A stretch of DNA of 38,631 bases from an uncultured Gammaproteobacteria bacterium (GTDB taxonomy: Bacteria > Patescibacteriota > Microgenomatia > JAMCZE01), in contig CAYHYP010000001.1 of the NCBI GenBank assembly GCA_964360925.1, positions 1-38,631 of the forward strand. Direction: 5' to 3'. Positions within the stretch are counted from its first letter, which is position 1, and every line of letters starts with the position of its first letter. The translations under genes were made by a program, and so were the position numbers. This document shows, piece by piece, positions 3,292 through 30,388 of this stretch. Under the pieces are notes generated by a model, which worked only from the letters and a program-made list of their open reading frames with translations, made no database searches and was not told the DNA's origin.

Positions 3292-4509
3292 ATGTTAAGA
3301 AAATTTGTATTTATTATTTCTATAATGAAAAAAATATTTTTGAAATCATTTTTATTTGCCGTCTTTATCATTATCTCTGGTGTATATTTTGCATCTCAAA
3401 TATCAGCAGCCGAATACCCCCTTTCATCGCTTGATGGAAAAGTAAAAACAGTATTTGACAGTAAATTTGGAGGGGGTATCACCAAAATCTATGATTTTGA
3501 CAACTTGGGTAATCAAAATCTTGTTTTGGATTCTCAAGCAGGAGCCATGTTTCAGAATGCTTTTTGGCTTGATCCCAAACATCTTAATCCTCCGTGGCCA
3601 GCGGGGTGTGCCGGTAATAATGACCAGTTGTGGAGCAATCCTACACAAGCGGGGTATATTTTTGATGGTTTGGCGGGAAACCCAATTGGAGTTTTTGGAA
3701 TTACCAATACTGCAGATCCGAAAGAATTTATCCGTTTAGAAGAGAACGGCAACAAGATTCACTTTAAATCACGATTTATTCGCTATGATTTTTGTTCTGG
3801 GCAAGCAACCACTGATTCACAAAAAGACTGGGATACTAATTTTTATGTTGAACAATGGGCAAGTTTTAGCCCTCAATTTTCACACACCCTTGTTTTAAAA
3901 ACAAAAATTTCATATGAGGGTGACTATTCCCAATGGGAGAACAGCGATACCGATACGGTGCACAACGGCCATCCAGTAACTAAACAGTGGCCTATTATCT
4001 TTGGTTTGAACTTGACACGAATTGCTTACATAAAAAATGGGGTTAAAACATTTGAATCAACTACCGATCACCATTTCGATCCTGATGGGAATTGGGCAGC
4101 CCTCCTTTCAAGTACAAAAGATACGGGTATCGGAATGATACTTGATGGTAAAGTTGTTCCCCGGCAGGGTGGAAAATTCGGAGGCGGTATAGGTTCAGGA
4201 AATCAGCCGGGTCATGGGGTTGTAAATTGGGGGTTTCTTTATCCCGGTCCCTGGCTTGATCTTAAACAATTTGGTACGTTGGTAAATGTTACTCCTGACG
4301 GTTGGGGAGGATACGCATATAAACCCGAGGGATATTTTGAGTGGACTGCTTATTACCCAATCGGAAGCCTAAGCATGATTGAACAAGTAGCTAATACCAT
4401 AGCTGCATCTCCCCTCCCCGGCGTGACTATTTCCAATTTGCGTTCCCTTTTTCAAAACTTTACAAATATTTTTGATTATAATAATTTGGTGGGGAATTTT
4501 GGGAAATAA
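3292..4509 (+). CDS. secreted protein of unknown function with conserved 26-aa C-terminal tail
   Basis: The track ORF starts at 3127 but overlaps the previous gene. Likely starts are ATG 3292 or 3325 (MKKIFLKSFLFAVFIIISGVYFASQISAAE signal peptide). Ends in ISNLRSLFQNFTNIFDYNNLVGNFGK. Confidence 0.7.
   Translation: MLRKFVFIISIMKKIFLKSFLFAVFIIISGVYFASQISAAEYPLSSLDGKVKTVFDSKFGGGITKIYDFDNLGNQNLVLDSQAGAMFQNAFWLDPKHLNPPWPAGCAGNNDQLWSNPTQAGYIFDGLAGNPIGVFGITNTADPKEFIRLEENGNKIHFKSRFIRYDFCSGQATTDSQKDWDTNFYVEQWASFSPQFSHTLVLKTKISYEGDYSQWENSDTDTVHNGHPVTKQWPIIFGLNLTRIAYIKNGVKTFESTTDHHFDPDGNWAALLSSTKDTGIGMILDGKVVPRQGGKFGGGIGSGNQPGHGVVNWGFLYPGPWLDLKQFGTLVNVTPDGWGGYAYKPEGYFEWTAYYPIGSLSMIEQVANTIAASPLPGVTISNLRSLFQNFTNIFDYNNLVGNFGK
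4429..4509 (+). other. conserved C-terminal tail motif (half-dockerin-like), copy 1
   Basis: ISNLRSLFQNFTNIFDYNNLVGNFGK*. Paralogous tails at 6331-6411 and 10122-10202, remnant at 7705-7758. Confidence 0.7.
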
Positions 4510-4510
4510 A

Positions 4511-5023
4511 ATGAAACAAATTAAAAGAGAAATTGTTTATGCCTTTATTGACAGTCAGAATTTGAATTTGGGAATTCAGGATCTTGGATGGCGGCTTGAT
4601 TTTAAAAAATTCAGAATATATTTAAAAGATAAATTTCGGGTTTCGAAGGCAATTATTTTTATCGGATATCTTAAGAATAATGAAGAGCTTTACAAAATGC
4701 TTCGTAATTTTGGGTACGAATTGGTTTTTAAACCAACTGTTAAGGATAAGTTTGGCAAAGTGAAAGGGAACGTTGATGCGGAAGTGGTTTTACACTCGGC
4801 AAATATTGAATATAACAATTATGACAAAGGAGTTTTTGTTTCCGGCGACGGTGACTTTTTTTGTCTGTACGAATTCTTATTGAAGAAAAACAAACTCGGA
4901 AGAATTTTAATTCCAAATAGAAATTCAGAATCGTCGTTACTTATAAAATTTCAGGATTATAAAATATTCTTGTTTAGAGATCGGGAGAAATTGGAGTTTA
5001 AAAATAAAAAGCGGGAGGCGTAG
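4511..5023 (+). CDS. NYN / LabA-like (PIN-fold) domain protein
   Basis: Start moved to ATG 4511 (MKQIKREIVYAFIDSQN), just after the previous stop. Pattern FIDxxN ... VSGDGDF is typical of NYN/LabA domains. Confidence 0.7.
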   Translation: MKQIKREIVYAFIDSQNLNLGIQDLGWRLDFKKFRIYLKDKFRVSKAIIFIGYLKNNEELYKMLRNFGYELVFKPTVKDKFGKVKGNVDAEVVLHSANIEYNNYDKGVFVSGDGDFFCLYEFLLKKNKLGRILIPNRNSESSLLIKFQDYKIFLFRDREKLEFKNKKREA

Positions 5024-5133
5024 CTATATGACACGTAGTCATATGGTCGTATTCTCCCTCGTGATTAGCTCTATTATATAGTACTTGGCAAGTAAGTCAA
5101 GAGGATATGTGCCGGATGTAACTTAACAAAATA

Positions 5134-6411
5134 ATGAAAAAAATATTATTATTTATTTTATTTTTTATTCTTATATCCCCACAACCAGTTTTGGCCTCGG
5201 TTGTTACCAATCGCACCGACGGCATCGCTCTTTTTAACAGCCAGCCATTTTTCCCCGTGGGGTTGTTTTATTGGTTTCCCAATGATAATCCCGCAGTTCC
5301 CACCGACCACTCCGGACAAATGCAAACTTTAAAAGACACTGGTTTTAATACGGTTTTTTTGGGAGGCAACAGAACTGATATATCTTATTTGGACCAGGCG
5401 CAGAATTTAGGATTAAAAGTGGTTAATTATAATGGTATATATAATAGTGATGCCAACTATATAAAAGCGATTGCTAATCACCCTTCTCTTCTTGCCTGGT
5501 ATGGAATTGACGAACCAAACTCAATTAATCTTTGCAACTGGAACCCAACAACAAAAACCTGCTCTTTTAACGATGCAAATCCAACCGTGAGTAATTTAAC
5601 AAATAAATATAACAGTCTTTGGTCAAACAATATTAACAACCATCCCATTTGGACAATTTATTCCATGGGGGAAACTAACGAACAGATTAAAGCCTGGCAC
5701 GAGTTGAGTAAATCATCTATTGGAGGAATTGATATCTATCCCGCAGTTTCGCAATTTACAAATTTCTGCGTTAAGAAAAATATTTCCTGTGTTGGAGAAA
5801 TGACTGACAAAGTGGTTGCTGCTCTTGGCAGCAATAAACCTGTTTGGATGGGGCTGCAGGGATTTACGACTTCACCTGAAGGCTATGGAGGAATCCCGCC
5901 TACATTAACTCAAACCCGTTTTATGGCTTATGATTCAATAGTCCACGGAGCAACGGGAATTTTTTGGTGGGATTATGATTTAAAAACTACTGATGATCTT
6001 TGGCGCAGTTTAAAACTTATGGTCACGGAATTGACAGATTCAAATATTAATCCTGCTTTGTTAGGAATCAATCGAACAATAACACAAAGCGGTCCGGTGA
6101 AAATATTATCAACTGCTGATGTCTCAGGGAAATATAAATATAAAATTGCCGTCAACGAAACAACACAACCCGCGGGAAACTATTCTATTTCCGGTTTTGC
6201 CCCCAATGCGGATGTTTTTGTTTTGGTGGAGAACCGCTGGCTCAAAGCTGATAACACAGGAGCTATCAATGACCGATTTGAGGACTGGTCCGTTCATCTC
6301 TACCGTCAGGAAATAATAAATATTGTGGACATTTCCGCCCTGCGTTCTCTCTTGCAAAACTTTACCACTATCTTTGACTATAATATTTTAGTGGGGAATT
6401 ACGGACGGTAA
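5134..6411 (+). CDS. secreted protein, possibly a TIM-barrel glycoside-hydrolase-like enzyme, with conserved C-terminal tail
   Basis: Signal peptide MKKILLFILFFILISPQPVLA. LLAWYGIDEPN resembles GH clan-A NEP-type motifs (weak). Ends in ISALRSLLQNFTTIFDYNILVGNYGR. Confidence 0.7.
   Translation: MKKILLFILFFILISPQPVLASVVTNRTDGIALFNSQPFFPVGLFYWFPNDNPAVPTDHSGQMQTLKDTGFNTVFLGGNRTDISYLDQAQNLGLKVVNYNGIYNSDANYIKAIANHPSLLAWYGIDEPNSINLCNWNPTTKTCSFNDANPTVSNLTNKYNSLWSNNINNHPIWTIYSMGETNEQIKAWHELSKSSIGGIDIYPAVSQFTNFCVKKNISCVGEMTDKVVAALGSNKPVWMGLQGFTTSPEGYGGIPPTLTQTRFMAYDSIVHGATGIFWWDYDLKTTDDLWRSLKLMVTELTDSNINPALLGINRTITQSGPVKILSTADVSGKYKYKIAVNETTQPAGNYSISGFAPNADVFVLVENRWLKADNTGAINDRFEDWSVHLYRQEIINIVDISALRSLLQNFTTIFDYNILVGNYGR
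6331..6411 (+). other. conserved C-terminal tail motif, copy 2
   Basis: ISALRSLLQNFTTIFDYNILVGNYGR*. Confidence 0.7.
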
Positions 6412-6448
6412 ACTTGACAAAATGCGGTTTCAGTTATAACATAATATT

Positions 6449-7027
6449 ATGCAAAGACTGAATTTGTTTAAGGTTCAACAAATACTTGGGAAGACCATAT
6501 TTACCCATCAGGATTTGGTGGCCGGTTTTGGAGTAAATAAGAGGGCGGTTGAGGCCTTTTTATCTTACAATTATCGAATGGGCAAGATTCAAAGGGTTCG
6601 TCGCGGTTTGTATTTTTTTACCGGTGAAACTATAGATACGTTTTCACTTGCCAACGTGATTTATGCCCCATCATACATTTCTTTAGAAACGGCGCTATCT
6701 TTTTATGGACTGATTCCGGAAGTTGTGTATAGCGTGACTTCAATTACGACAAGAACAACAAGGGAATTTGGTTTTAATGACATAAATTACAGTTACCAAT
6801 CAATAAAAACGGAGGCTTTTACCGGATATGTACCGATAGATAGAGATGGTATAAAAATTCTTATGGCTACCCCCGAAAAAGCCCTCGCGGATTATTATTA
6901 TTTTGTATCTTTAGGAAAGAAAACGGCAAATGATAGAATTAATATTGACAAAATAGATAAAAAAATTCTTAAAAATTATTTATCTTTATATGATCGACAA
7001 AAATTACTTGCAAACTATTGCCATTAA
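6449..7027 (+). CDS. AbiEi-family antitoxin / transcriptional regulator (type IV TA)
   Basis: Paralogous to 28068-28670 and 31888-32496 (shared PSYISLETALSFYGLIPE-type motif). Overlaps the downstream AbiEii-like gene. Confidence 0.7.
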   Translation: MQRLNLFKVQQILGKTIFTHQDLVAGFGVNKRAVEAFLSYNYRMGKIQRVRRGLYFFTGETIDTFSLANVIYAPSYISLETALSFYGLIPEVVYSVTSITTRTTREFGFNDINYSYQSIKTEAFTGYVPIDRDGIKILMATPEKALADYYYFVSLGKKTANDRINIDKIDKKILKNYLSLYDRQKLLANYCH

Positions 7028-7700
7028 AAACCAAACGACTTTTGATAATATTGCCAGAGAGTATCTTCAGCAATTATTTTTATCAATCTTCTATCAATTG
7101 CCGGGGAGCGAGAAATTTTTATTTAAAGGCGGGACCGCCTTACGCCTTATTTTTCGATCCCCGCGGTTTTCCGAAGACATCGATTTTTCGGTGACAGGCG
7201 AGATTTCGACATTTGAAAATATTCTCATAGATGTTCTTGAAGAACTTAAAAAAAATGACATCGATTGCCAATTAATAACCGCAGAAAAAACTACCGGCGG
7301 GTATATTGCAAAAATCTCGGCAAAGTTATACGACCAAAAATTTACCATATTATTTAATCTTTCTGAAAGAAGGAAAAAAACAGATAAAGGGGAGAGGAAC
7401 ACCATTACCGGGGATTATTTTCCGGCGTTCCCGGTTTCAATTTTAGAAAAAAAGAGTCTGATAAACGAAAAAATTGAAGCGCTTTTAATCCGTTCCAAGC
7501 CGCGTGACTTTTTCGACCTCTATTTTATTTTAAGATCAAATCTCTTATCAACCGCCGGGAAGGGAATTTTAAAAAAAGTTATCCCGGTCTTACAAAAAAC
7601 TAAACTTGATTTTAACCGGGAACTAAAAGTCTTTTTACCGAAATCCTACTGGCCCGTCATCAAAGATCTTAAAAGATTGTTGATGAATGAGATTGAATGA
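6990..7700 (+). CDS. AbiEii/AbiGii-family nucleotidyltransferase toxin
   Basis: FKGGTALRLIFRSPRFSEDIDFS nucleotidyltransferase motif. Gene order and overlap with AbiEi. Confidence 0.75.
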   Translation: MIDKNYLQTIAIKNQTTFDNIAREYLQQLFLSIFYQLPGSEKFLFKGGTALRLIFRSPRFSEDIDFSVTGEISTFENILIDVLEELKKNDIDCQLITAEKTTGGYIAKISAKLYDQKFTILFNLSERRKKTDKGERNTITGDYFPAFPVSILEKKSLINEKIEALLIRSKPRDFFDLYFILRSNLLSTAGKGILKKVIPVLQKTKLDFNRELKVFLPKSYWPVIKDLKRLLMNEIE

Positions 7701-7704
7701 AAAA

Positions 7705-7758
7705 AATAATAATATTTTTGATTATAATATCTTAGTGGGGAATTATGGGAAACTTTAA
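7705..7758 (+). pseudogene. orphan 3'-end remnant of a tail-motif gene
   Basis: Reads NNNIFDYNILVGNYGKL* in the 60-nt gap between the AbiEii gene and the ATPase gene. Near-identical at DNA level to the 3' ends of 3292-4509 and 5134-6411. Confidence 0.5.
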
Positions 7759-7760
7759 GT

Positions 7761-9044
7761 CTATGCTAACAACCATTCAATTACCGGTTTGGCGGGGGAA
7801 TTGCCGTCGAGACCAATCTCTTTATCAAGATACAAAACAACCCCTTTGGAATCAAGATGTTTTTTGACAAGCTCTAAATTGCCAAACTCCCGTTTTGAAT
7901 TATTTTCATTTAAGGACAGGCACACTTGAAAGGCCAAATAGTGGTCATCTTTATTTATTAAAAAATCGACTTCATAACCGTTTTCTTCCTGCCCAAAATA
8001 AATATTCTCCCGACCATATCTTCTTACTAATTCATTGTAAACCAAATTTTCCAGCCTTTTTTCCTTATTTTCTTCCCGTCCCGGAATAAAAATATTGTCG
8101 ACCAAATAGTATTTAGCCGTCCGGTTAAAAACCCTGCTTAATTTGTAATCAAATTTGGTAAGTTTCTCCAAAGCATAGGCACTTGTCCAGTAACGCAGGT
8201 AATTTTCAATGGTAGTGGGGGCCACCGATAAACCCTGTTCTTCAAGCCGTCCCACAATCCGGCGCAGGGAAAGGGTCGAAGTGATATTCCCGCGCACGAA
8301 CGAAAAAGTTTCCTTGAGCAGATTTACATTATCAATGTTATATCTTTTAATAATGTCATCAAGAATGATTTTTTGGACAAGACCCTCGCTATAATTTGCC
8401 GCCAGGGAATCTTTAAGGTTAAATTGTTCACAAAGGCCGCCGCGTTGAAGGTAAATTGCAAAAGCTGAATCAATGGCACTTTTTTGGGAGTAATAATCAT
8501 TGTGATCCAATTTTAAATATTGCAGATATTCAGTGAAACTAAACGGTTTTACTTCAAGGTTGAGGCTTCGTCCGGAAAGGCTGGAACTTAATTCTCCGGA
8601 CAAAAGTTGGCTATTGGAACCGCTGATGAAAATATTGTATTTTCCCTGTTCATAGAGAGTGCGAACCAGCTTTTCCCAGTTTTTCACCATCTGGATTTCA
8701 TCCCAAAAAATATAGATTGGCTTGTTGACGTTCGCCAATTCTCTTAAATAAATTTCCCAAATATGGCGCAGATCGCTTACGGTTTTAATATTTTGCAACA
8801 AATCATTTTCGAAATTGAGATAAAAAATATTTTCCACGGCAAGCCCTTTTTCAATTAGGGATTTAGAGAGCATTTTAAGAAGAAATGACTTGCCGGAACG
8901 GCGAAATCCCACAACCGCCTTAATGAGCCGACTTTTACTGCCTTGGGAAAGCCAAGAAAAGTAATCATTTCTGGAGACCGGCACGGTTGTGCCAAGATCA
9001 CGAGATTCAGCTATGGCCTGTCTTAATTCTTGTACGGAAATCAT
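7761..9044 (-). CDS. AAA-family ATPase (AAA_14 + DUF4143-like architecture)
   Basis: Walker A GFRRSGKS, Walker B IYIFWDEIQ, 427 aa. Confidence 0.75.
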   Translation of the reverse strand: MISVQELRQAIAESRDLGTTVPVSRNDYFSWLSQGSKSRLIKAVVGFRRSGKSFLLKMLSKSLIEKGLAVENIFYLNFENDLLQNIKTVSDLRHIWEIYLRELANVNKPIYIFWDEIQMVKNWEKLVRTLYEQGKYNIFISGSNSQLLSGELSSSLSGRSLNLEVKPFSFTEYLQYLKLDHNDYYSQKSAIDSAFAIYLQRGGLCEQFNLKDSLAANYSEGLVQKIILDDIIKRYNIDNVNLLKETFSFVRGNITSTLSLRRIVGRLEEQGLSVAPTTIENYLRYWTSAYALEKLTKFDYKLSRVFNRTAKYYLVDNIFIPGREENKEKRLENLVYNELVRRYGRENIYFGQEENGYEVDFLINKDDHYLAFQVCLSLNENNSKREFGNLELVKKHLDSKGVVLYLDKEIGLDGNSPAKPVIEWLLA

Positions 9045-9104
9045 AACTTGATGTTATCATCTTTGTACGACACTGTCAAGCATTTATTTGCTATACTTAA
9101 TCAG

Positions 9105-10202
9105 ATGAAAAAAATATTTTTAATTTCGCTTGTATTGACAACTACTTTATTCCTTAGGCCGAAAACAATTTTTGCTGAAAACGTGATGCTTCTTATTTTT
9201 AATCCGGTTATTGAATCTCAAAACAACCAAAAACTTAGTCAGTTTTTAAATTGGAGCGATCCCGATCAATTGACACAACAATATATTCTTGATGTCAAAG
9301 ATTCAAGCGGAGGAATAGTTAATTATCAGATTACTAAAAAGTTGGAAGTTGACGGCTTCCCCGTAAAGGCTGACGGATTTAAATACTCTGATGAGACGTA
9401 TTTAGAATGTTGGCGTGATCACTCCAAATGTCACAGTTCAGACAGTGTGGATTACTACAAAATTCTTTCGGATTACGATGTTTGCGGAAAAAGAAACCGG
9501 GATGAAATCCATGAACTTTGGATTTTTGGCGGTCCTTGGTTTGGTTATTGGGAGGCGGTTATGGCCGGCCTGGGAGCTTTTTGGACAAACGCCCCTCCCC
9601 TATATAACTCTACGTGTCAAAAACAACTGCACATTATGGGTTTTAGCTATGAACGGGGTGTTTCTGAAATGCTTGAAAATTTGGGCCATCGTGTCGAAGG
9701 AACAATGAGCCATTTATACAATGGCTGGGCTTTTGGATATGGCCCACCATCAACCCAGTTACCCACCTCATTAACTAATTGGGATAAATTTAGCGCTAAA
9801 GAATACGATCCGGGGGTAATAGCCGGTTGCGGATTTATTCACGGTAGTTTGAATACCCCTAATTATAACCCGAGTAATTATTGGAGCTATGATTGGGGAA
9901 ACACTAACTTTGTGCAAAGTACTTGCAACGACTGGTTAAATTTCCCTAACCTCACAAGTCAAACAGAAACAATCAATTGTCAGGCTTGGAACTGCACAGG
10001 ATACGGTTTTAAAAAATGGTGGTTTAACCACATCCCTCGCTATGAAGGTAAAACGGATGGTAAATGGAATAATTGGTGGCGCTATATTTTGGATTACGAA
10101 GAGGCCACTAAAGTAGTGAACATTTTAGATCTGCGTTCCCTATTACAGAGCTTTACTAATATCTTTGACTATAATAAACTAGTGGCAGATTATGGAAAAT
10201 AA
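9105..10202 (+). CDS. secreted Cys/Trp-rich protein with conserved C-terminal tail
   Basis: Start moved to ATG 9105 (MKKIFLISLVLTTTLFLRPKTIFA signal peptide), because the track start 9030 overlaps the divergent ATPase gene. Ends in ILDLRSLLQSFTNIFDYNKLVADYGK. Confidence 0.7.
   Translation: MKKIFLISLVLTTTLFLRPKTIFAENVMLLIFNPVIESQNNQKLSQFLNWSDPDQLTQQYILDVKDSSGGIVNYQITKKLEVDGFPVKADGFKYSDETYLECWRDHSKCHSSDSVDYYKILSDYDVCGKRNRDEIHELWIFGGPWFGYWEAVMAGLGAFWTNAPPLYNSTCQKQLHIMGFSYERGVSEMLENLGHRVEGTMSHLYNGWAFGYGPPSTQLPTSLTNWDKFSAKEYDPGVIAGCGFIHGSLNTPNYNPSNYWSYDWGNTNFVQSTCNDWLNFPNLTSQTETINCQAWNCTGYGFKKWWFNHIPRYEGKTDGKWNNWWRYILDYEEATKVVNILDLRSLLQSFTNIFDYNKLVADYGK
10122..10202 (+). other. conserved C-terminal tail motif, copy 3
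   Basis: ILDLRSLLQSFTNIFDYNKLVADYGK*. Its stop overlaps the start of the first cohesin-like gene. Confidence 0.7.
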
Positions 10203-11754
10203 AAAGAAACTAATTTTTTCCGTTCTTGGGTTGCTTCTGCTTACCGGTGGGCTGATTGCCGCCATCTTTATAGTTGGAAAACAGATAATTTTCCAAAACA
10301 AAGCCTTTACCGAAACCGGAACAGCAACTTTAACGGTCTCCCCTTCTTCCGGCACAAAAAACGTCGGAGATATTTTCCCTGTAAATTTTAAATTTGCCAC
10401 TGTGGGAGCCACCGAAAATGGAGTTAGCACAGTTCAGTTTGTCTTTAGTTTCCCCTCGAATTTAGATCTGGTTAACTCTTCAGGAAACCCGGTAAATCAA
10501 TTAACGATTGATCCCGCTTTTACCACAACAGGAACAAAATGGACTTTCCCATTTAACACAGTTACCAGAAGTGCCGGAATAGTTACTGTTCAATTTAGCG
10601 GAATTTATAGCGACACCGTTGGCTATATGACAGCCATACCGCTTACCCTTGCCACTGCCCATCTAAAAGCAGTTTCTTCCGGTGTAGCGAATTTTACTTT
10701 TGACCCGGTAAACACCGTTATTTTGACCAAGGGCTATCCCACTCAAGATATCCTAAAAACACCGGATTCTGTTTCTTTTACCATTTCTTCCGGCACAACC
10801 TCGGGTGTGGGGAAATTTGTATTTCCGGCAACGGCTACTATTCCCGTCGGTGAAACGCCAACACCGGTTCAAGTAAAACTTAATACCGGCAATGTCCCCG
10901 TATCTTCGTTATCTTTTAGATTAAATTATTCTTCTTCTGCACTTGAGACAATAAATATTGTCCCGGATATTACTTTGGCGGGTTCTGCCGATTGGGCATT
11001 TCCGGTCAAAACTATTACCCGATCCGACGGAGTGGTGACAATTGATTTTGCCGCAATAAATTCAAATATTGCCGGTTTTACATCTTCTACCGATACTATT
11101 CTGGCGACCATTAACTTTAAGGCAAACAGTATTCCCATCACCAATCCCGTTATTCTTTCTTTTGATGCTACCAAAACCAGCATTTTATCTAAAGCCTCAC
11201 CCCCTGTGGAAATACTGCAAACGCCCACCAGCCTTTCTTATACTATTGTTGCTGCTGCCCCACTCCCCCCAACCCTAAGTTTTGGTTTTAAAGTTCAAGG
11301 AGTGACGACTGCCAATATTACAAAAACTTTCACTGTAACCGTTAAGGGGACAACAACCTCGGATATTAGTCAGACACTTACCAGTGGCGCCAACGGCGTT
11401 TTCAGAGCTACCAACGTGACTATGCCCAACGTTGGAACAGCCGTTAATATTTTTGTCAAAAGTTCAAATACTTTAAAGAAAAAGCTTGGCTCCGTAAATT
11501 TAATTCCCGGACCAAATATTGCTCCCGTTGCTTGGGAAAGCATTGCCCTACTGACCGGTGACTTTGACAGTAACAATATCTTTAATATCACCGATATTGC
11601 CAAAATGCTGCAAAATTATACAGCTCTTTCAACTCCTGTCACTACGGCGAATGGTTTTGGGATATACGATGCAGACAATGACGGTAATTATGCTCTAAAA
11701 GATCTTGCTATTATTTTGAGTAATTTTACAGACTTAAGTAAACCTGGTGACTAA
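10192..11754 (+). CDS. surface scaffold protein: signal anchor + 2 cohesin-like modules + beta-sandwich + dockerin
   Basis: N-terminal TM helix. Two paralogous modules (TLTVSPSSGTKNVGDIFPV..KWTFPFNTVT..FTFDPVNTVI and VPVSSLSFRLNY..DWAFPVKTIT..LSFDATKTSI). C-terminal duplicated F-hand. Confidence 0.7.
   Translation: MENKKKLIFSVLGLLLLTGGLIAAIFIVGKQIIFQNKAFTETGTATLTVSPSSGTKNVGDIFPVNFKFATVGATENGVSTVQFVFSFPSNLDLVNSSGNPVNQLTIDPAFTTTGTKWTFPFNTVTRSAGIVTVQFSGIYSDTVGYMTAIPLTLATAHLKAVSSGVANFTFDPVNTVILTKGYPTQDILKTPDSVSFTISSGTTSGVGKFVFPATATIPVGETPTPVQVKLNTGNVPVSSLSFRLNYSSSALETINIVPDITLAGSADWAFPVKTITRSDGVVTIDFAAINSNIAGFTSSTDTILATINFKANSIPITNPVILSFDATKTSILSKASPPVEILQTPTSLSYTIVAAAPLPPTLSFGFKVQGVTTANITKTFTVTVKGTTTSDISQTLTSGANGVFRATNVTMPNVGTAVNIFVKSSNTLKKKLGSVNLIPGPNIAPVAWESIALLTGDFDSNNIFNITDIAKMLQNYTALSTPVTTANGFGIYDADNDGNYALKDLAIILSNFTDLSKPGD
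11548..11751 (+). other. dockerin-like domain (two F-hand repeats)
   Basis: GDFDSNNIFNITDIAKMLQNYT ... YDADNDGNYALKDLAIILSNFT. Confidence 0.7.
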
Positions 11755-12829
11755 AAAAATATTATTATCAATATTGAGTCTGTTTCTCCTGGTGGTGGGT
11801 TTGGTTGTGTCCAGTTTACTCGTTTACCGTCAGGTTAATTTAAGATCTAAGGCTACCGTCAACGGAGTTACCTTGTCTTTGGCTTCCGGCAAAACCACGG
11901 TAAATCCGGGTGAATCTTTTGATGTTGTCATCAATTTAAACAATACGACCACCAATAAAATTACCGCCGCAAGTGTGTTTTTAACTTACCCTTCAGATAA
12001 ATTAACCTTGACTTCAATTACCCCCGGAGCATTTTTTTTGGCGAGCTACAACAGTGCAACCACGGAAATGCTTAATAAAACGGATATTACTACTGTCGGA
12101 GTAGGAAAATTACTTATTGGAGTCCCCTGCACTATTTCTTCCCCTTGGGTTTGTTACCCCCAAACAACGGCCGCCGGACAAGTAGCCACTTTTAGATTTC
12201 AAGTTAAAACCACTGCTGCTGTGGGAAATGTAACGATTGGTTTTGACGACACAAATACAGCCATATCCGCTTTAGACTCTGCCGGGAATGCTATTCCTAC
12301 CAGCATCTTGTCCGGGAAGACCCCTGTAGTCATTACCATCAAGTCCCCAGAAATTACCCCCGCAACTTTGACGTTTAGTTTCAAACTACTGCAAAATAAT
12401 AACACTGTAGCCAGGACAGCCGATGTTTTGCTAAAAAGCAGCTCTCAAACATTGTCATTTACAAACATTGCCCTAACAGGAAATAACGGGGTCTTTAGCC
12501 CATCAACACCTATTACCTTAACCGGTATAACCGCCGGGACAACATATGACGTTCTGGTAAAAGTACCCGGCTATTTACGAAAGAAGATTGGCACTACCGG
12601 TACTACTACCTGGAATAACATCCTGCCTCTGGCCGGTGATTTTGACGGCAACAATATTCTTAACATCCTTGATATAGGTAATATCTTAGGGTTGTATAAT
12701 GCAATTAGTGTCTCGGTAACCGCGGTAACCCGGGTTTATGATCTTGACGGTAACGGCGTCATTAATATCTTAGACGTAGCCAATACTATAGCCAGCTATA
12801 CAGCTATATCGGTTTTGGGAGATAATTAA
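11747..12829 (+). CDS. surface scaffold protein: signal anchor + cohesin-like module + beta-sandwich + dockerin
   Basis: 8-nt overlap with the upstream gene. TM helix. GVTLSLASGKTTVNPGESFDVVINL module. C-terminal dockerin. Confidence 0.65.
   Translation: MTKKILLSILSLFLLVVGLVVSSLLVYRQVNLRSKATVNGVTLSLASGKTTVNPGESFDVVINLNNTTTNKITAASVFLTYPSDKLTLTSITPGAFFLASYNSATTEMLNKTDITTVGVGKLLIGVPCTISSPWVCYPQTTAAGQVATFRFQVKTTAAVGNVTIGFDDTNTAISALDSAGNAIPTSILSGKTPVVITIKSPEITPATLTFSFKLLQNNNTVARTADVLLKSSSQTLSFTNIALTGNNGVFSPSTPITLTGITAGTTYDVLVKVPGYLRKKIGTTGTTTWNNILPLAGDFDGNNILNILDIGNILGLYNAISVSVTAVTRVYDLDGNGVINILDVANTIASYTAISVLGDN
12623..12826 (+). other. dockerin-like domain (two F-hand repeats)
   Basis: GDFDGNNILNILDIGNILGLYN ... 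YDLDGNGVINILDVANTIASYT. Confidence 0.7.
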
Positions 12830-12835
12830 AATATT

Positions 12836-13309
12836 ATGAATCTTATTTCTGCCCTATTTTTAGCGGTAACAACTTTTTTCCAAAGTATATTTGGGATAGA
12901 AACTCCACCTCCGCCGATTGTTAATACTATTAGAGTATATCTTGTTCCTACTGCCACCGATTTGGAAATTCACATATCAGGTAGTAATCAAAATCTAAGT
13001 GCCATTGCTGTCAGGCTGGTTTATCATTACTCAAAAACCCCAAGCGGAATAACCATTACTCCAAACGCGCTTTTATTTAAAGATAATTGGAATTTCCCGG
13101 TTAAAAAAACTATTGTCAACGCCGCCCAAAAAGCGGTAACTTTAGATTTAGCTGCGGTGAATATTAGTACGACCGGGTATCTTTTAAATTCCGATCTCTT
13201 GTTGGCCAAAATTAACTCTTCTGCCGGATTGGATCAATTCTCGTTTGATCAAAAGGAGACAAAAATTTATGGTAAAAACACAAATGAAATCCCTCTTATT
13301 TTTAACTGA
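12836..13309 (+). CDS. small secreted single cohesin-like module protein
   Basis: Signal-like N-terminus. DNWNFPVKKTIV..LDLAAVN..FSFDQKETKI matches the module landmarks of the neighbouring genes. Confidence 0.6.
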   Translation: MNLISALFLAVTTFFQSIFGIETPPPPIVNTIRVYLVPTATDLEIHISGSNQNLSAIAVRLVYHYSKTPSGITITPNALLFKDNWNFPVKKTIVNAAQKAVTLDLAAVNISTTGYLLNSDLLLAKINSSAGLDQFSFDQKETKIYGKNTNEIPLIFN

Positions 13310-14151
13310 TGGAAACAAATATGAAACGGAATATTATCATCGGCATAGTTATTTTTATCTTCCTGGTCGGGGGTTTGGGTGTGGGTTTATTTTTGGTAAA
13401 TCAAAAACAGGATGTTCGCAGTAAAGCATCAACTGATATAGGAACTGCCATCATTAACCTTTCCCCCACCACGGGAAACATCACTGCCGGTAGTTCATTA
13501 CCAATCACTATATCCCTTAACCCCGCCGGAAATGTTATTTCTGCTTTTGCTATCCGGATAAATTATTCCTATTCCGGAACAATTCCCGATCTTACCGCGG
13601 AAAATTTTCAAATTAGCCCGGCGCTTACATCCGGCGGAGATTGGACTTGCCCGGTAAAAAAATTTACTGCCGCCGGTGGAAAAGCCAATATAGACATTGC
13701 TTGCGCGAATACCAGCACAACCGGATATTCCGGCAGTGGAGTCATTAATTTAGCCACAGTTTCTTTGACCGCCACTGCCTCTGCGGCCAACAACACTTAC
13801 ACTTTGGCCTTTGACCCAAAAGAAAGTATCATCACTAAAAAATCAGACAGTTTAGATATCCTTCTTACTCCTAACAGTCGTGGGACTTACACTGTTTCCG
13901 GCACGAGTATTACTCACAAGTATTCCTGCAACACTGCCGGCACTTGTGTCCAGAATGATGCCACCGGCACTTATACAAATGCTAATTGCAATAACAGCTG
14001 TACTCCTCCTCCCCCGCCACCGGTAGTACCACCTCCGGTAACACCACCACCCACCACCCTACCCGTCACCGGCAATCCTTTCTTGACTTTTGGTTTGGCA
14101 GTAGTAGGCGTTATTGTCTCTTTTTCCTCGCTTCTTTTACTCAAGCGCTAA
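13309..14151 (+). CDS. sortase-anchored cohesin-like protein (anchoring scaffold)
   Basis: Start overlaps the previous stop (alternative ATG 13321). TM/signal, cohesin-like module (GDWTCPVKKFT..LAFDPKESII), Pro-rich linker, then LPVTG + hydrophobic helix + KR. Confidence 0.7.
   Translation: METNMKRNIIIGIVIFIFLVGGLGVGLFLVNQKQDVRSKASTDIGTAIINLSPTTGNITAGSSLPITISLNPAGNVISAFAIRINYSYSGTIPDLTAENFQISPALTSGGDWTCPVKKFTAAGGKANIDIACANTSTTGYSGSGVINLATVSLTATASAANNTYTLAFDPKESIITKKSDSLDILLTPNSRGTYTVSGTSITHKYSCNTAGTCVQNDATGTYTNANCNNSCTPPPPPPVVPPPVTPPPTTLPVTGNPFLTFGLAVVGVIVSFSSLLLLKR
14059..14148 (+). other. LPXTG cell-wall sorting signal
   Basis: LPVTGNPFLTFGLAVVGVIVSFSSLLLLKR at the extreme C-terminus, preceded by PPPPPPVVPPPVTPPPTT. 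Confidence 0.75.
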
Positions 14152-14169: not shown

Positions 14170-14850
14170 ATGTATCCGATTGTTCAAGCACCGAATGAAA
14201 TTTTGAGAACCCCGGCTGTGCCGTCTAATTTAACGCCGGAAAAACTTAAAAAAATAATTTCTGAAATGACAAAAACTCTTTTGGCGCAGAAAGATCCTGA
14301 AGGAGTGGGATTGGCGGCAAACCAAGTGGGACTTCCCTACCAAATTTTTTTGGCCCGATTTACTACTAAGAAATCCGAACCTGTCCGTGTTTTCATCAAT
14401 CCTAAAATTATTGACCATAGTGAAGAAATTCAAGAAGAAACAAAGAATTCTCCTCTTGAAGGTTGTCTCTCCGTACCAAAATATTATGGAGTAGTGAAAA
14501 GATGGAAATGGGTGAAAATGGAATACCAAGCACCACCGTCATCCTGGAGCCACGCCGTTCGTCATCCTGGAGCGAGTGAAACGAGCGATAGGATCTATCC
14601 TGGTAAAAAGATTCTATCGCCCTTCGGGCTCCAGAATGACGCTGGGGTTTCGCTCCAGCATGACGACGAAATTTTAGAAACTAGAACCGAAACTTTTGAG
14701 GGGTTTCCGGCTGTGGTTATTCAACACGAAATGGATCATTTGAATGGGAAAATTTTTGTGGAAAGAATTTTGGAACAAAACGGCCAAATGTATAAAGTAA
14801 CCGGAAAAGATAAAAAAGGCAAAGAAAAATGGGAAGAGGTAGAGCTGTAA
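14170..14850 (+). CDS. def: peptide deformylase with ~45-aa repeat-derived insertion
   Basis: All three PDF motifs are present: GLAANQVG, EGCLSVP, HEMDHLNG. The insert lies between motifs 2 and 3. Confidence 0.9.
   Translation: MYPIVQAPNEILRTPAVPSNLTPEKLKKIISEMTKTLLAQKDPEGVGLAANQVGLPYQIFLARFTTKKSEPVRVFINPKIIDHSEEIQEETKNSPLEGCLSVPKYYGVVKRWKWVKMEYQAPPSSWSHAVRHPGASETSDRIYPGKKILSPFGLQNDAGVSLQHDDEILETRTETFEGFPAVVIQHEMDHLNGKIFVERILEQNGQMYKVTGKDKKGKEKWEEVEL
14538..14665. repeat. GTCAT-hairpin repeat cluster, in frame in def
   Basis: Same unit order as 1030-1140, with an extra 5' partial unit. Translated SSWSHAVRHPGASETSDRIYPGKKILSPFGLQNDAGVSLQHD. Confidence 0.9.
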
Positions 14851-15278: not shown

Positions 15279-16196
15279 ATGAAAAATCAGAGGGTTGCAT
15301 TTTTTGGAACATCAAAATATTGTTTGCCGGTTTTGGAGGCTTTGAAAAACCTGCCTGCCGGCAGGCAGGAATTGGTTCTTGTAATTACCCGCGAAGATAA
15401 ACCTGTGGGGAGAAAACAAATTTTGACACCGTCTCCCGTTAAACAATGGGCAATTAAAAATGGAATTAAAGTAGATTCTAGCGGCGTAGCCGCGAGCTTG
15501 CTCATCGCCCCGCCAACGGCGGGGCTCCAGAATGACGAAAAAGTAGATTTGGCAATCGTTGCTGATTACGGAAAAATTATAAAACACGAAGTTTATGAAA
15601 AACCAAAACTGGGAACCTTTAATATCCATTTTTCAAAATTGCCGGAACTTCGTGGCCCCTCCCCAGTGCAATCAACATTGTTACGCGGTGACAAAACCGC
15701 TTGGATAACAATTTATAAACTTAAATATTATCCCGAACTGGAAATTAAAATGGATTCCGGTCCTATTTTATGGCAAAAAGAATATCCCATCCTACCCGAC
15801 GACACCACCGAATCTTTGTATACCAGATTATTCCAAGAAATCGCCAAGGAAATACCGGAAATAATAAATTCTCTAGCCGCTTGCCGCTTGCCGCTAATTT
15901 CTCAAGACCACTCCAAAGCTACTTTTTGCAAAATGCTAACTAAGGATGATGGATTTATTGAATGGGATCTTTTGAAAAACAGTATGTATGTTGCATGTTG
16001 CGATCGCAACATGATACCTACATCTCGAGTTGAAAAATTATATAACCAATATAGAGCGATGTACCCTTGGCCGGGAATATGGACTATTAAAGATGGAAGA
16101 CGAATGAAAATTTTGAAATGCCATTTGGAAAAAGAAAAAATTGTTTTGGATGAAATCCAATTTGAAGGAAAAACCCCGGAAAAATACAAAAACTAG
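15279..16196 (+). CDS. fmt: methionyl-tRNA formyltransferase with two repeat-derived insertions
   Basis: N-terminal formyltransferase fold (VAFFGTS.., ITREDKPVGRKQILTPSPVK, NIHFSKLPELRGPSPVQ). Sits next to def. Confidence 0.9.
   Translation: MKNQRVAFFGTSKYCLPVLEALKNLPAGRQELVLVITREDKPVGRKQILTPSPVKQWAIKNGIKVDSSGVAASLLIAPPTAGLQNDEKVDLAIVADYGKIIKHEVYEKPKLGTFNIHFSKLPELRGPSPVQSTLLRGDKTAWITIYKLKYYPELEIKMDSGPILWQKEYPILPDDTTESLYTRLFQEIAKEIPEIINSLAACRLPLISQDHSKATFCKMLTKDDGFIEWDLLKNSMYVACCDRNMIPTSRVEKLYNQYRAMYPWPGIWTIKDGRRMKILKCHLEKEKIVLDEIQFEGKTPEKYKN
15350..15369. repeat. perfect 20-bp palindrome CCTGCCTGCCGGCAGGCAGG, in frame in fmt (LPAGRQ)
   Basis: Identical 20-mer at 26377-26396. Imperfect copy at 19566-19585. 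Confidence 0.85.
15474..15537. repeat. GTCAT-hairpin repeat unit (reverse orientation, long form), in frame in fmt
   Basis: gattctagcggcgtagccgcgagcttgctcatcgccccgccaacggcggggctccagaatgacg. Confidence 0.85.
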
Positions 16197-19200: not shown

Positions 19201-20232
19201 TTATTTCTCATTGTTAAAAAAATTCAAAGTATCTTTAACTGCCTCGTTCCATTTTGGAACCATATTGTGATCTGCCCCCACGTACTCTTTATAAACTAAT
19301 TTGAAATTTAAAATTTGAAATTTGAAATTAAAGTCGCGATTCCAACGAACCGGAACCCATTCGTCAGCTTCTCCCTGTTGAATAAATATTGGCGCTTTTA
19401 TACTGTCTAAATATTTATCAAACGAATATTTATTGACGTCATAATCTTTTTCAAAATCAGCGGTGGCTTTTCTTAACCACAAACCTTCATCTTTATAACC
19501 GTCGGTATAATATAAAATGTTATATGGAAAAGATTTGGTCACCGGATTCCATAAAACCGTAGGAACCTGCCTACCGGCAGGCAAGATGGTTAATATTGTC
19601 AGAGCAATTTGCCCGCCATTGGAATGACCCCATAACATTAATTTACAACTGTCATCCTGACGAAGGTCAGGATCTCTCAACTTGTTTGAGTTAACACTCG
19701 CATTCGCGAGAGATGCTGAAACAAGTTCAGCATGACAGATTGAAGCTATTAAATCCATATTCGTGGTATACGTCAAAAATCTATTTTCAAAATCATCCCG
19801 ATGGCCATCGGGATCAGATTCCCCATATCCCAAAAAATCGGGGGCAAAAGTGACATAACCGTTTTTTGCCAGAACCTCGGCAACTTTTTGGGTTCCAAAA
19901 CCGGGAAAATATTCTCCCTCGTCTGCCGAACCATGAAGCAATAAAATTGCCGGTTTAACAGTGGCACTTTGGGTAGCTCCGTTTATTATTCCGGAAATTT
20001 TTTTGCCGTCGGAAGAATAATAAAATTTGTTGCCGGAAAAAGTAATCTCCGAAGGGATCCCTCCCCGTTTGCGTAAATTCTCTATCGTATATTTGTCCAG
20101 GGGTTTTTCAAAAAAGGGTTTGATTAAAGGAGAAGCCGGATATCTTTCTTTGAAATTTCCAAGCAAAAATATAACACTTACAATTATAATCGTAATTAAT
20201 AAAATTAAAAATCCAACCAGCCACTTTTTCAT
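19201..20232 (-). CDS. membrane-anchored alpha/beta hydrolase (S9/dienelactone-hydrolase-like) with repeat insertions
   Basis: N-terminal TM helix. Nucleophile elbow GHSNGG. Late GADH. Repeat inserts at 19566-19585 and 19651-19736. Confidence 0.7.
   Translation of the reverse strand: MKKWLVGFLILLITIIIVSVIFLLGNFKERYPASPLIKPFFEKPLDKYTIENLRKRGGIPSEITFSGNKFYYSSDGKKISGIINGATQSATVKPAILLLHGSADEGEYFPGFGTQKVAEVLAKNGYVTFAPDFLGYGESDPDGHRDDFENRFLTYTTNMDLIASICHAELVSASLANASVNSNKLRDPDLRQDDSCKLMLWGHSNGGQIALTILTILPAGRQVPTVLWNPVTKSFPYNILYYTDGYKDEGLWLRKATADFEKDYDVNKYSFDKYLDSIKAPIFIQQGEADEWVPVRWNRDFNFKFQILNFKLVYKEYVGADHNMVPKWNEAVKDTLNFFNNEK
19566..19585. repeat. imperfect copy of the CCTGCC..GGCAGG palindrome, inside the hydrolase gene
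   Basis: cctgcctaccggcaggcaag. Translated LPAGRQ on the minus strand. Confidence 0.7.
19651..19736. repeat. 86-nt composite triple-hairpin element, copy A (inside the hydrolase gene)
   Basis: gtcatcctgacgaaggtcaggatc-tctcaacttgtttgag..ctcgcattcgcgagaga-tgctgaaacaagttcagcatgac. Confidence 0.9.
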
Positions 20233-22658: not shown

Positions 22659-22663
22659 TTTCT

Positions 22664-22749
22664 GTCATCCTGACGAATGTCAGGATCTCTCAATTTGTTT
22701 GAGTAATTTCTCGCATTCGCGAGAGATGCTGAATCGAGTTCAGCATGAC
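22664..22749. repeat. composite triple-hairpin element, copy B (6 nt after the murF stop)
   Basis: Near-identical to 19651-19736 and 36686-36769. Confidence 0.9.
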
Positions 22750-22753
22750 ACTA

Positions 22754-22782
22754 TTGACATTTTTATTATGGAGACCTATAAT
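22754..22782 (+). promoter_or_regulatory. consensus sigma70 promoter TTGACA-17-TATAAT
   Basis: TTGACA 22754-22759, TATAAT 22777-22782. No annotated gene for ~160 nt downstream. Confidence 0.6.
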
Positions 22783-24824: not shown

Positions 24825-25043
24825 ATGAAAGATTTTACGGTCACGGCGCCTGATTTTGGCAAAAGCCCGCTGGCATTTTTTAAAGAAGTTAAAACGGAGC
24901 TTTCAAAAGTTTCCTGGCCAAATAGACCAACGGTGTTAAGATTAACCGGCGTCGTCATCGGAGCATCTATAATAGTAGGGATTTATTTGGGAGGATTGGA
25001 TTACATATTTACGAAGATAATAGAGATATTGTTGAGAAAATAG
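24825..25043 (+). CDS. secE: preprotein translocase subunit SecE
   Basis: FFKEVKTELSKVSWPNRPTVLRLTGVVIGASIIVGIYLGGLD, directly upstream of nusG. The track start at 24810 is TTG; the ATG at 24825 is preferred. Confidence 0.85.
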   Translation: MKDFTVTAPDFGKSPLAFFKEVKTELSKVSWPNRPTVLRLTGVVIGASIIVGIYLGGLDYIFTKIIEILLRK

Positions 25044-25045
25044 GC

Positions 25046-26330: not shown

Positions 26331-26344
26331 TTTGAAAAACATGT

Positions 26345-26447: not shown

Positions 26448-26480
26448 ACAAGGAAGATTATAAATTGTAAATTTTGGAGT

Positions 26481-30280: not shown

Positions 30281-30286
30281 AACTAC

Positions 30287-30366: not shown

Positions 30367-30388
30367 AATTTGAAAGGTGGTGAGAATT

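Follow-up and report, generated by a model that had tools for sequence, protein, structure and literature searches.

Three secreted proteins of a groundwater CPR bacterium, encoded in the window (the whole stretch of 38,631 nucleotides that was analyzed), carry a common C-terminal tail of 28 residues, which profile comparisons show to share descent with recognized dockerins. We consider it probable that the tail is a dockerin stripped of both calcium loops and that it docks the secreted proteins into the cohesin scaffold encoded beside it. This idea fits the positional equivalence of the tail with full dockerins, the cargo that it terminates and its conserved adjacency to cohesin genes; the binding itself is predicted from sequence.

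A conserved tail on three secreted proteins

The tail is encoded by the last 28 codons of three open reading frames (ORFs) on the plus strand: T1 (positions 3325 to 4509; tail VTISNLRSLFQNFTNIFDYNNLVGNFGK, coded at 4423 to 4506), T2 (5134 to 6411; tail VDISALRSLLQNFTTIFDYNILVGNYGR, coded at 6325 to 6408), and T3 (9105 to 10202; tail VNILDLRSLLQSFTNIFDYNKLVADYGK, coded at 10116 to 10199). The alignment of the three tails has 17 invariant columns. An earlier note on this DNA had placed the tails on these proteins, and they were indeed found as the final codons of the three ORFs. The 26 residues that it quoted belong to the motif, but the conserved stretch begins 2 residues further upstream. As a degenerate DNA pattern, the tail gave three matches in the window against 0.00 expected (100 shuffles). 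The bodies are dissimilar, as the note had remarked: BLASTP of the tail-less proteins among themselves gave a best E value of 0.33. All three N termini begin with MKKI(F/L)L, followed by a run of hydrophobic residues and then an Ala-rich site resembling a cleavage site; judged by eye, they look like Sec-type signal peptides, in agreement with the same note.

Copy against copy, the tail-coding DNA was ~75% identical, and the differences fell at synonymous sites. The dS values were 1.2 to 1.6 (near saturation) and the dN values were 0.16 to 0.18, giving dN/dS ratios of 0.10 to 0.15. The tail is therefore conserved at the protein level by purifying selection, and its copies are old and have been kept by selection on the peptide. 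The same high dS and low dN/dS values rule out recent duplication or gene conversion as the source of the likeness.

Kinship of the tail with dockerins

The earlier note had proposed an HMM of the tail. Searched against 1.84 billion proteins, the tail profile retrieved 186 at an E value of ≤1e-3, with the motif at the extreme C terminus in 145 of the 150 best matches. The matches form graded classes. Class A has two full DxNxDGxVDIFDYNxLVxNFGK repeats (the module GDxNxDGxVDIFDYNxLVxNFGK, twice), class B has lost calcium loop 2, class C has a variant first helix (ILDLRQLL), and class D, the form in the window, has lost the first loop as well. Class A passed the Pfam Dockerin_1 model (33 and 25.1 bits; cut-off, 22.9), whereas relatives of classes C and B were sub-threshold and matched with repeat 1 only (13.8 to 19.5 bits). 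T1, T2, and T3 gave no Dockerin_1 match even at an E value of ≤1, and the class D relatives P0008, P0013, and P0044 gave none. The class A profile matched the solved dockerin 2y3n_B (E value, 4.6e-6); the tail profile had no significant match among solved dockerins.

The link between the two ends of this series was provided by hhalign, which aligned class D with class A at a probability of 97.6% (E value, 4e-12). Tail residues 2 to 15 correspond to repeat 1 and residues 16 to 30 correspond to repeat 2, separated by a gap of ~16 to 18 residues that spans the linker and loop 2. P0080 (L079, positions 4172 to 5716) stands between the classes, having two loops together with an ILDLRQFL helix. A chain from class D through class A to Dockerin_1 thus indicates descent shared with recognized dockerins. 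The dockerin link made in the earlier note is supported through this series, but the direct match that it saw to the dockerin F-hands of the neighboring cohesin proteins was weak (hhalign probability, 34%). That note had also likened the tail to half a dockerin. Because both helices align with class A, the tail represents an entire dockerin from which the calcium loops are missing, and the half-repeats left in it, of 14 residues each, are (V)(D/N)I(L/S)(D/N)LRSLLQNFT and NIFDYNxLVGNFGK. Two helices are also predicted for the tail in the AF2 model of T3 (pLDDT, 91.9), at residues 340 to 348 and 353 to 363 (pLDDT, 61 to 76).

Dockerins have two EF-hand-like Ca2+ loops with Asp/Asn at positions 1, 3, 5, 9, and 12 (PMC12484212). 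The tail does not have two such loops: only positions 8/9 to 12 remain (V-D/N-I-x-D/N and T-N-I-F-D), and neither repeat has ligand positions 1, 3, or 5. The DxDxDG loop is missing, as the earlier note had stated. Calcium is required for the folding of known dockerins; with these ligands missing, a calcium dependence of the tail is unlikely.

Full dockerins and tails are exchanged at the same junction in each of the three body families, all of which have members ending in full two-loop modules or Pfam dockerins. T1 (394 residues) has a beta-rich body of unknown family, with no match in Pfam, NCBIfam, and PDB sequence searches and a poor AF2 model (pLDDT, 55); its homologues end in a class D tail (P0044) or in a full two-loop class A module (P0095). 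T2 (425 residues) is probably a TIM-barrel glycoside hydrolase. The protein itself had no match in the Pfam search, and its body homologue P0009 (class D tail) passed Glyco_hydro_2_C (22.2 bits; cut-off, 21). Further homologues carry class D tails (P0017 and P0027) or class C tails with a calcium loop (P0107 and P0032). T3 (365 residues) belongs to a widespread uncharacterized family, and a Foldseek search with it gave only weak metzincin-like matches (E value, 4e-3). The majority of its 152 body homologues terminate at ..NNWWRYILDYE, and some run on past this point, ending in a module of class A, in a tail of class D, or in a canonical dockerin (PF00404). Across classes C and D, the bodies include beta-helix lyase-like proteins, GH5, GH43, GH53, GH2/42-like enzymes, polysaccharide deacetylase, GxGYxYP proteins, and subtilases. 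Carbohydrate-active enzymes predominate and some proteases occur, a predicted cargo that fits dockerin-bearing proteins.

Cohesin genes beside the tail genes

Four cohesin genes lie downstream of T3 on the plus strand. C1 (10192 to 11754) encodes an N-terminal hydrophobic segment, two cohesins found by HMM (~10300 to 10788 and ~10792 to 11247), and a two-loop dockerin (11557 to 11751). C2 (11747 to 12829) encodes a cohesin (~11849 to 12346), a middle beta domain, and a two-loop dockerin (12635 to 12826), and it passed Pfam Cohesin PF00963 (E value, 1.2e-6; 29.2 bits; cut-off, 24.1). C3 (12836 to 13309) encodes a small protein with one cohesin module and nothing else. C4 (13309 to 14151) encodes a cohesin (~13423 to 13899), a proline-rich stalk, and a sorting signal of LPVTG, hydrophobic segment, and KR (14059 to 14148). 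This signal makes C4 the likely anchor of the system to the cell wall; no gene for a sortase was found within the window. A profile of 22 cohesin modules, including all five of the window, matched solved cohesins such as 3l8q, 6kgc, and 4ums (E values, 9e-11 to 1e-8), and a profile of the C1/C2-type dockerins matched solved type I dockerins (E value, 4.5e-8).

Cohesin ORFs were present in 16 of the 66 metagenome loci retrieved via the tail. In four loci, namely the window, L012, L075, and L077, a class D tail gene is followed immediately by a cohesin gene. The stop codon of the T3-family gene overlaps the start of the cohesin gene in both the window, where this gene is C1, and L077, even though identity between the two T3 homologues is only 31%. 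C1 orthologues come after tail genes in L075 and L077. In the loci of classes A and B, some cohesin proteins themselves terminate in class A or B tails, like scaffoldins, and the only dockerin-like module beside the cohesins of class B systems is the tail family. In L004/L007, a single genome has classes C and D next to each other within one gene array, which suggests interchangeable use.

The tail would have arisen from a dockerin-like module of two repeats that is common at the C termini of secreted CPR proteins, its half-repeats being joined directly into a helix-turn-helix of 28 to 30 residues. T1, T2, and T3 would be exported by Sec, and their tails, acting as the docking tag that the earlier note had suggested, would insert into a cohesin, one of five such modules encoded at 10192 to 14151. 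With C4 held on the cell wall via LPVTG, and with C1 and C2 serving as adaptor scaffolds through their cohesins and ordinary two-loop dockerins, a changeable set of hydrolases may be shown on the cell surface as in a small cellulosome. More tentatively, the class D tail could be a functional ligand of cohesins whose folding and binding need no calcium, the smallest natural dockerin at ~28 residues, and also a portable homology block. If so, the tail and the adjoining CPR cohesins would form a minimal system for display on the surface of ultra-small bacterial cells, and the tail segment, because it is repeated, would allow enzyme bodies and downstream cassettes to be reshuffled.

Known systems and alternative roles of the tail

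Like type I dockerins (PF00404) of Clostridium/Acetivibrio cellulosomal enzymes, the tail is C-terminal on secreted carbohydrate-active enzymes and proteases, has two tandem one-helix repeats, is encoded beside cohesin scaffold proteins of which one has a wall-anchor signal, and is homologous via class A intermediates. Unlike these modules of ~60 to 70 residues, the tail has 28 to 30, no linker between its repeats, and loops without positions 1 to 7/8, including Asp/Asn ligands 1, 3, and 5, and it is missed by the Pfam model. We know of no characterized calcium-independent dockerin. Classes B and C, in which a canonical loop is lost, have their closest precedent in the type III dockerins of Ruminococcus flavefaciens, which are without a second canonical Ca2+ loop and yet bind cohesin tightly (PMC12484212). 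In contrast to the class D tail, they retain loop 1, are calcium-responsive and full-sized, and often have inserts; they show no detectable sequence kinship with the tail beyond the general dockerin pattern. For the CPR "IFDYN" module (classes A and B), no describing paper was found in the limited literature consulted, which is absence of evidence only. This module shares with class D helix 2 (IFDYNxLVGNFGK), the C-terminal position, the groundwater CPR metagenome habitat, same-strand tandem arrays, and body families. They differ in that the module has two (A) or one (B) intact loops and a helix 1 of IFDYNLLVxxFG rather than I(L/S)DLR(S/Q)LLxNF.

Several observations weigh against docking and leave room for a dockerin-derived tail that has lost cohesin binding and is kept for another job, an alternative that we regard as unlikely but the most serious of those considered. 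That job might be attachment to another surface component (cell-wall polymer, S-layer, or host-cell surface), enzyme oligomerization, or a C-terminal cap. The residues of both calcium sites are gone, the predicted tail helices of T3 have modest pLDDT values, and direct matches to Dockerin_1 and to solved dockerins are lacking. No cohesin was found within the large class C/D arrays of L001 (10 kb), L004-L007 (L004/L007 covering 16 kb of a Gottesmanbacteria contig), and L079 (15.5 kb). The ordinary dockerins of C1 and C2 could be the sole ligands of the window's cohesins, and the strong purifying selection is evidence only for the existence of some partner. A loss of binding is made less likely by the adjacency in four loci, two of them with the stop-start overlap across diverged T3 homologues, by the side-by-side occurrence of classes C and D, and by the class B systems, in which cohesins have no other dockerin-like neighbor.

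Much less probable is the alternative offered in the earlier note, that the tail serves as a sorting or secretion signal at the C terminus. A dedicated export or anchoring machine would then recognize it, on the model of LPXTG with sortase, PEP-CTERM with exosortase, or the C-terminal domain of the T9SS. The tail resembles LPXTG and PEP-CTERM signals in that it is short and conserved and that many unrelated secreted proteins terminate in it. It has a conserved terminal G-K, and several tail genes occur per genome. Unlike these signals, it has no signature motif, run of hydrophobic residues, transmembrane helix, or basic end, but is amphipathic, helical, and homologous to a protein-protein docking module. 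Its maximum Kyte-Doolittle hydropathy (15 residues) was 0.55 to 1.25, compared with 2.55 for the LPVTG-bearing C terminus of C4 (13309 to 14151). Moreover, the proteins already have N-terminal Sec-type signals, and no candidate processing enzyme recurs beside the tail genes, whose recurrent neighbors are NYN, AbiE, AAA_14, and cohesin genes.

Apart from the cohesins, these neighbors are interleaved with the tail genes and form no part of the docking system. A NYN-domain gene (4511 to 5023, plus strand; Pfam NYN, E value, 1e-11) starts 2 nucleotides after the T1 stop; the same order recurs in L011, and in L018 NYN follows a different tail gene. An AbiEi-like and AbiEii toxin-antitoxin pair (6449 to 7700, plus strand; AbiEii E value, 1e-24) lies between T2 and a relic fourth tail, and in L001, L002, and L075 related pairs come after different tail genes. 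An AAA_14/DUF4143 ATPase gene (7761 to 9044, minus strand; Pfam match) lies between the relic and T3, and genes of this family stand inside tail-gene arrays of L001, L010, and L079. The relic, NIFDYNILVGNYGKL with its stop (7711 to 7757, plus strand), is in the spacer after the AbiEii gene, with the start-like sequence ATGAAAAAAATAATAATA ahead of it at 7697. It is probably a tail gene whose body was lost; at the relic's place in L075, after AbiEii, is an intact tail gene of 545 residues.

This interleaving raises the least probable of the alternatives, which we would expect to be correct only in a rare case: that the tail is mainly a DNA-level recombination or insertion site for small selfish gene cassettes, with peptide conservation being secondary. 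The related AbiEi/AbiEii pairs after three non-homologous tail genes (T2 in the window, L002, and L075), the NYN genes after two different ones, the AAA_14 genes within arrays, and the 3' tail relics, one at 7711 to 7757 and another joined to the end of an AAA_14 ORF of L001, are consistent with such a site. Against it stand the conservation of amino acids despite near-saturated synonymous sites, the limited identity of the three DNA copies, and a motif that hundreds of distant proteins have kept at the peptide level. Where tails recombine with one another, this is better explained as a by-product of having homologous segments in repeat.

A common C-terminal tail on three secreted proteins

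Three forward-strand open reading frames (ORFs) of the window, T1 (3325 to 4509; 394 aa), T2 (5134 to 6411; 425 aa), and T3 (9105 to 10202; 365 aa), start with Sec-type signal peptides (MKKIFLKSFLFAVFIIISGVYFASQISA.., MKKILLFILFFILISPQPVLA.., and MKKIFLISLVLTTTLFLRPKTIFA.., respectively) and end in a common C-terminal tail with the consensus V-x-I-x-x-LRSL(L/F)Q(N/S)FT(N/T)IFDYNxLV(G/A)(N/D)(F/Y)G(K/R)-stop. The bodies without their tails showed no mutual similarity by BLASTP (best E value, 0.33). The ORF ends and the BLASTP comparison confirmed the claim of the earlier note that unrelated secreted proteins share a tail, and a decayed fourth copy (NIFDYNILVGNYGKL*), a sequence match at 7711 to 7757, extended it. 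It is plausible, but not certain, that ATGAAAAAAATAATAATA, upstream of this relic, is a decayed gene start, given the synteny with L075, a related metagenome locus. This synteny weakened our first reading of ATGAAAAAAATAATAATA as a product of low-complexity chance.

A degenerate DNA pattern of the tail gave three matches in the window against 0.00 expected. A degenerate DNA pattern written by hand found only 7 stretches on genome contigs; two of these, L003 (Eubacteriales) and L008 (Levyibacteriota), were discarded as chance matches outside ORFs. The three tail-coding copies showed DNA identity of about 75%, and the differences were synonymous (dS, 1.2 to 1.6; dN, 0.16 to 0.18; dN/dS, 0.10 to 0.15), thereby indicating that the copies are old and that the peptide is the conserved entity. 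The saturation of the synonymous sites also led us to reject the tail being an RNA element or recently repeated DNA.

Relationship of the tail to dockerins

Searches of Pfam, NCBIfam, and PDB sequences with T1 to T3 recognized nothing, and the PDB matches of the tail profile were all rejected as spurious repeat matches (a designer PPR, 'YNTLISGLGK', and an LRR). A profile search of the tail, as the earlier note had proposed, was run against 1.84 billion representative proteins. It yielded 186 matches at E ≤ 1e-3, of which 14 reached E ≤ 1e-10, and the motif was at the extreme C terminus in 145 of the 150 best matches. The 186 proteins form a graded series reaching Pfam-positive dockerins. Class A comprises two complete repeats, GDLNxDGKVDIFDYNxLVxNFGK-(linker)-DIDxNGKVDIFDYNxLVxNFGK. 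In class B, loop 1 is retained and repeat 2 is shortened to ..NPYTIFDYNxLVxNFGK. Class C, PGDLNGDGRVDILDLRQLLxNFTNIFDYNxxVGNFGK, has an intact loop 1 and a variant first helix, and in class D, the form of the window, loop 1 is gone as well. Some class D members retain loop vestiges (..SAGHVDILDL.. and ..HPRHVTILDL..). Protein P0080 is intermediate, combining two loops with the ILDLRQFL helix, and in P0002 a calcium loop precedes the tail.

Class A scored 33 and 25 bits with Pfam Dockerin_1, above its gathering threshold of 22.9, classes B and C gave sub-threshold matches to the first repeat only, and class D gave zero matches. The class A profile also matched the solved dockerin 2y3n_B (E value, 4.6e-6); a designer PPR that ranked first in this PDB search was dismissed as an artefact. 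When profiles of 29 class D tails and of 30 class A modules were compared by hhalign (probability, 97.6%; E value, 4e-12), tail residues 2 to 15 aligned with repeat 1 and residues 16 to 30 with repeat 2; a single gap of about 16 to 18 residues took in the linker and the beginning of loop 2. Because both repeats are aligned, the tail is not half a dockerin, to which the earlier note had likened it; it is a whole two-repeat dockerin in which only the final four or five residues of each calcium loop are left. Traces of the internal duplication can be recognized (NI(L/S)DLRSLLQNFT versus NIFDYNxLVGNFG), and in an AF2 model of T3 (120-sequence alignment; pLDDT, 91.9) the tail was predicted as two helices, 340 to 348 and 353 to 363, with moderate confidence (pLDDT, 61 to 76). 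The likeness to the F-hands of the neighboring genes, also pointed out in that note, is real but weak when taken alone (hhalign probability, 34%).

Within each of the three body families, alternative C-terminal modules occur at the same junction, and the tail sits at the dockerin position. The T1 family includes a class D protein (P0044) and one with a class A module (P0095), and no class C tail, canonical dockerin, or extension-free member was seen. The T2 family carries class D (P0009, P0017, and P0027) and class C tails (P0107 and P0032), with no other modules or extension-free members seen. Tails of the T3 family are of class D (P0008, P0152, and P0153) or class A (P0086 and P0083), with none of class C seen. 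Two further members end in a canonical two-loop dockerin (P0161 and P0199; precomputed PF00404), and most of the 152 homologues have no extension and end at ..NNWWRYILDYE. On one contig of Gottesmanbacteria (L004/L007), classes C and D are mixed in an array of at least nine tail genes, all on one strand.

The cargo of 42 class C and D proteins, of a sort that is usual for dockerins, included glycosidases (GH5, GH43, GH53, and GH2/GH42-like barrels), a pectate-lyase-like right-handed beta-helix, polysaccharide deacetylase, GxGYxYP, a ConA-like domain, and two subtilases; an F5/8 type C domain was found in L075. Through P0009, T2 can be assigned by transitivity as a probable TIM-barrel glycoside hydrolase. 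The AF2 model of T1 was poor (pLDDT, 55; 3-sequence alignment), and Foldseek returned only weak metzincin-like matches for the T3 model (best E value, 4e-3; TM, 0.25 to 0.41). The T3 body family, of about 320 aa, is uncharacterized and widespread, with members in CPR, Chloroflexota, and Ignavibacteria. Certain H, E, W, and Y residues are invariant (e.g., E150, H246, W324, and W325), and a stretch of the form E..LGHR.E is nearly so.

Two calcium loops define dockerins, and calcium is considered necessary for folding and cohesin binding. The families closest to the tail are type I dockerins and the type III dockerins of Ruminococcus, which set a precedent for the loss of a loop. In type III dockerins the second canonical calcium loop is missing, but binding is tight and still responsive to calcium (2025 review, PMC12484212). 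Dockerin domains are on record in Patescibacteria, one of them essential in a Saccharibacterium (PMC10633639). The literature searched gave no account of a dockerin lacking both loops or of the present IFDYN subfamily, which is absence of evidence only. By profile and calcium loops the tail falls outside Dockerin_1, whereas by repeats and homology, and by context at the loci with cohesin genes (the window, L012, L075, and L077), it falls within; it was therefore classed as a dockerin variant and not as a plain member. The tail profile can serve as a search tool. Every class D protein is missed by Pfam, and such cargo is therefore annotated at present without a docking module.

Cohesin genes and the proposed role of the tail

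T3 is followed by four genes, C1 to C4 (10192 to 14151), that contain five mutually similar modules. C2 scored above the Pfam Cohesin threshold, and a profile of 22 cohesin-like modules matched solved cohesins (E value, 9e-11). C1 and C2 end in ordinary two-loop dockerins (profile against solved type I dockerins; E value, 4.5e-8), and C4 ends in LPVTG, a hydrophobic stretch, and KR, a sortase-type wall anchor signal. The stop codon of T3 and the start codon of C1 overlap. Locus L077 is arranged likewise: the start of its C1 orthologue overlaps the stop of a class D tail gene, whose product is a T3 homologue of only 31% identity. L075 has three class D tail genes ahead of its C1 orthologue, and in L012 a class D beta-helix enzyme is followed by four cohesin ORFs, two with ordinary dockerins. 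Cohesin ORFs were present in 16 of the 66 metagenome loci fetched via the tail (39 ORFs over 348 kb), including 6 of the 15 that are 8 kb or longer. Tail and cohesin genes, whose co-occurrence the earlier note had taken as a test, lie together at these loci; against this, no cohesin was found within L001, L004 to L007, and L079 (class C/D arrays of 10 to 16 kb).

Several cohesin proteins of the class A and B systems themselves carry a C-terminal class A or B tail, as scaffoldins likewise end in a dockerin-type tail. Many CPR cohesin proteins at class B loci end in a conserved amphipathic helix (e.g., ..SPFARFIAMIKAFFGAK, ..FWQIILDWLAKFFQ, and ..SIWDRLIQFAKKLLGVVR) and not in LPXTG: L023 1097 to 1888; L032 1485 to 2207 and 2988 to 3875; L034 8393 to 9337; L040 656 to 1477; L070 711 to 1550 and 2366 to 3295; L072 276 to 1220; and L031 9489 to 10382 and 11193 to 12119. 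This helix may be an alternative scaffold anchor to the membrane or surface.

We consider it rather probable that the tail docks T1 to T3 into cell-tethered cohesins and thereby displays hydrolases. T1 to T3 would leave the cell by Sec, and their helix-turn-helix tails would plug into cohesins held to the cell via the LPVTG signal of C4 and the dockerin-cohesin links of C1 and C2, so that the cell would display a changeable hydrolase set. The data above show the homology to dockerins, the position of the tail, the exchange of modules, the selection on the peptide, and the linkage to cohesin genes; we infer that the tail binds cohesin with partner specificity and independently of calcium. A natural series dropping one and then both loops, under strong selection and beside cohesin genes, would be new. 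It would mean that two helices alone suffice for function or that a dockerin was re-purposed; the latter, a dockerin-derived tail that now has another partner or role, is unlikely, with a chance that still counts.

The sorting or secretion signal offered as an alternative in the earlier note is quite improbable: the tail has no hydrophobic segment (Kyte-Doolittle values of 0.55 to 1.25 versus 2.55 for LPVTG), no processing enzyme recurs near tail genes, and the tail is homologous to a docking module. That the tail DNA is a recombination site is scarcely credible and is contradicted by the saturated synonymous sites. Under the docking reading, groundwater CPR bacteria, which are thought to be attached to other cells and to rely on scavenged polymers, would display glycoside hydrolases, lyases, and proteases on their surface in the manner of a cellulosome. 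A calcium-free, 28-residue docking peptide would be a useful tag in designer enzyme complexes.

Cassettes, repeats, and related contigs

Tail genes are repeatedly followed by small genes of selfish or defense type, at 4511 to 5023, 6449 to 7700, and 7761 to 9044 in the window and also in L001, L002, L010, L011, L018, L075, and L079. AbiEi/AbiEii lies downstream of T2 in the window, of another gene in L002, and of a T3 homologue in L075; NYN comes after T1 in the window and in L011 and after a different gene in L018; and AAA_14/DUF4143 lies within the tail-gene arrays of L001, L010, and L079. The occurrence of like cassettes after nonhomologous tail genes suggests that tail-coding segments recombine with one another and so bring bodies and cassettes into new combinations. 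In L001, the last 8 codons and stop of the AAA_14 ORF at 248 to 1423 (1397 to 1423, ..LVGNFGH*) match the 3' end of the tail, with about 24 nt nearly identical to the tail-coding 3' end 1.2 kb upstream, and the orthologue in L079 has a different end (..LDFLTNDF). The L001 end resembles the remnant of a tail joined to a selfish gene.

The window also contains dozens of short palindromic repeat units on both strands, of the types CGTCATYCTGGAG...GATAGRATCT and GAGATGCTGAAACAAGTTCAGCATGACA, at about 514 to 570, 1036 to 1146, 14537 to 14671, 15465 to 15506, 19649 to 19754, 22662 to 22767, 25040 to 25157, 26421 to 26718, 29996 to 30040, 30286 to 30390, 33549 to 33787, 34194 to 34311, 35135 to 35625, 36196 to 36354, 36685 to 36786, 37054 to 37103, and 37610 to 37946; none lies in the tail genes. 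Many are in frame within long ORFs, such as a deformylase-like ORF (14170 to 14850) and an L1-like ORF (26343 to 27290), where they insert extra peptide, for example HPGASETSD..RIYSGKKILS..LQNDA..LQHD. They resemble MITE/REP-like elements whose presence within genes is tolerated.

Some genes of the window recur as exact copies on Hainich groundwater contigs (Hain_H51 and Hain_H52), and the nearest named relatives are Candidatus Gottesmanbacteria. The window would come from a groundwater CPR bacterium, probably one of the Microgenomates group. Class D tail genes also occur on L002 and L005, from a MAG labeled 'uncultured Gammaproteobacteria' (CAYHSW01), together with an AbiE pair whose protein sequences almost match those of the window pair; these two contigs are probably mis-binned CPR DNA.
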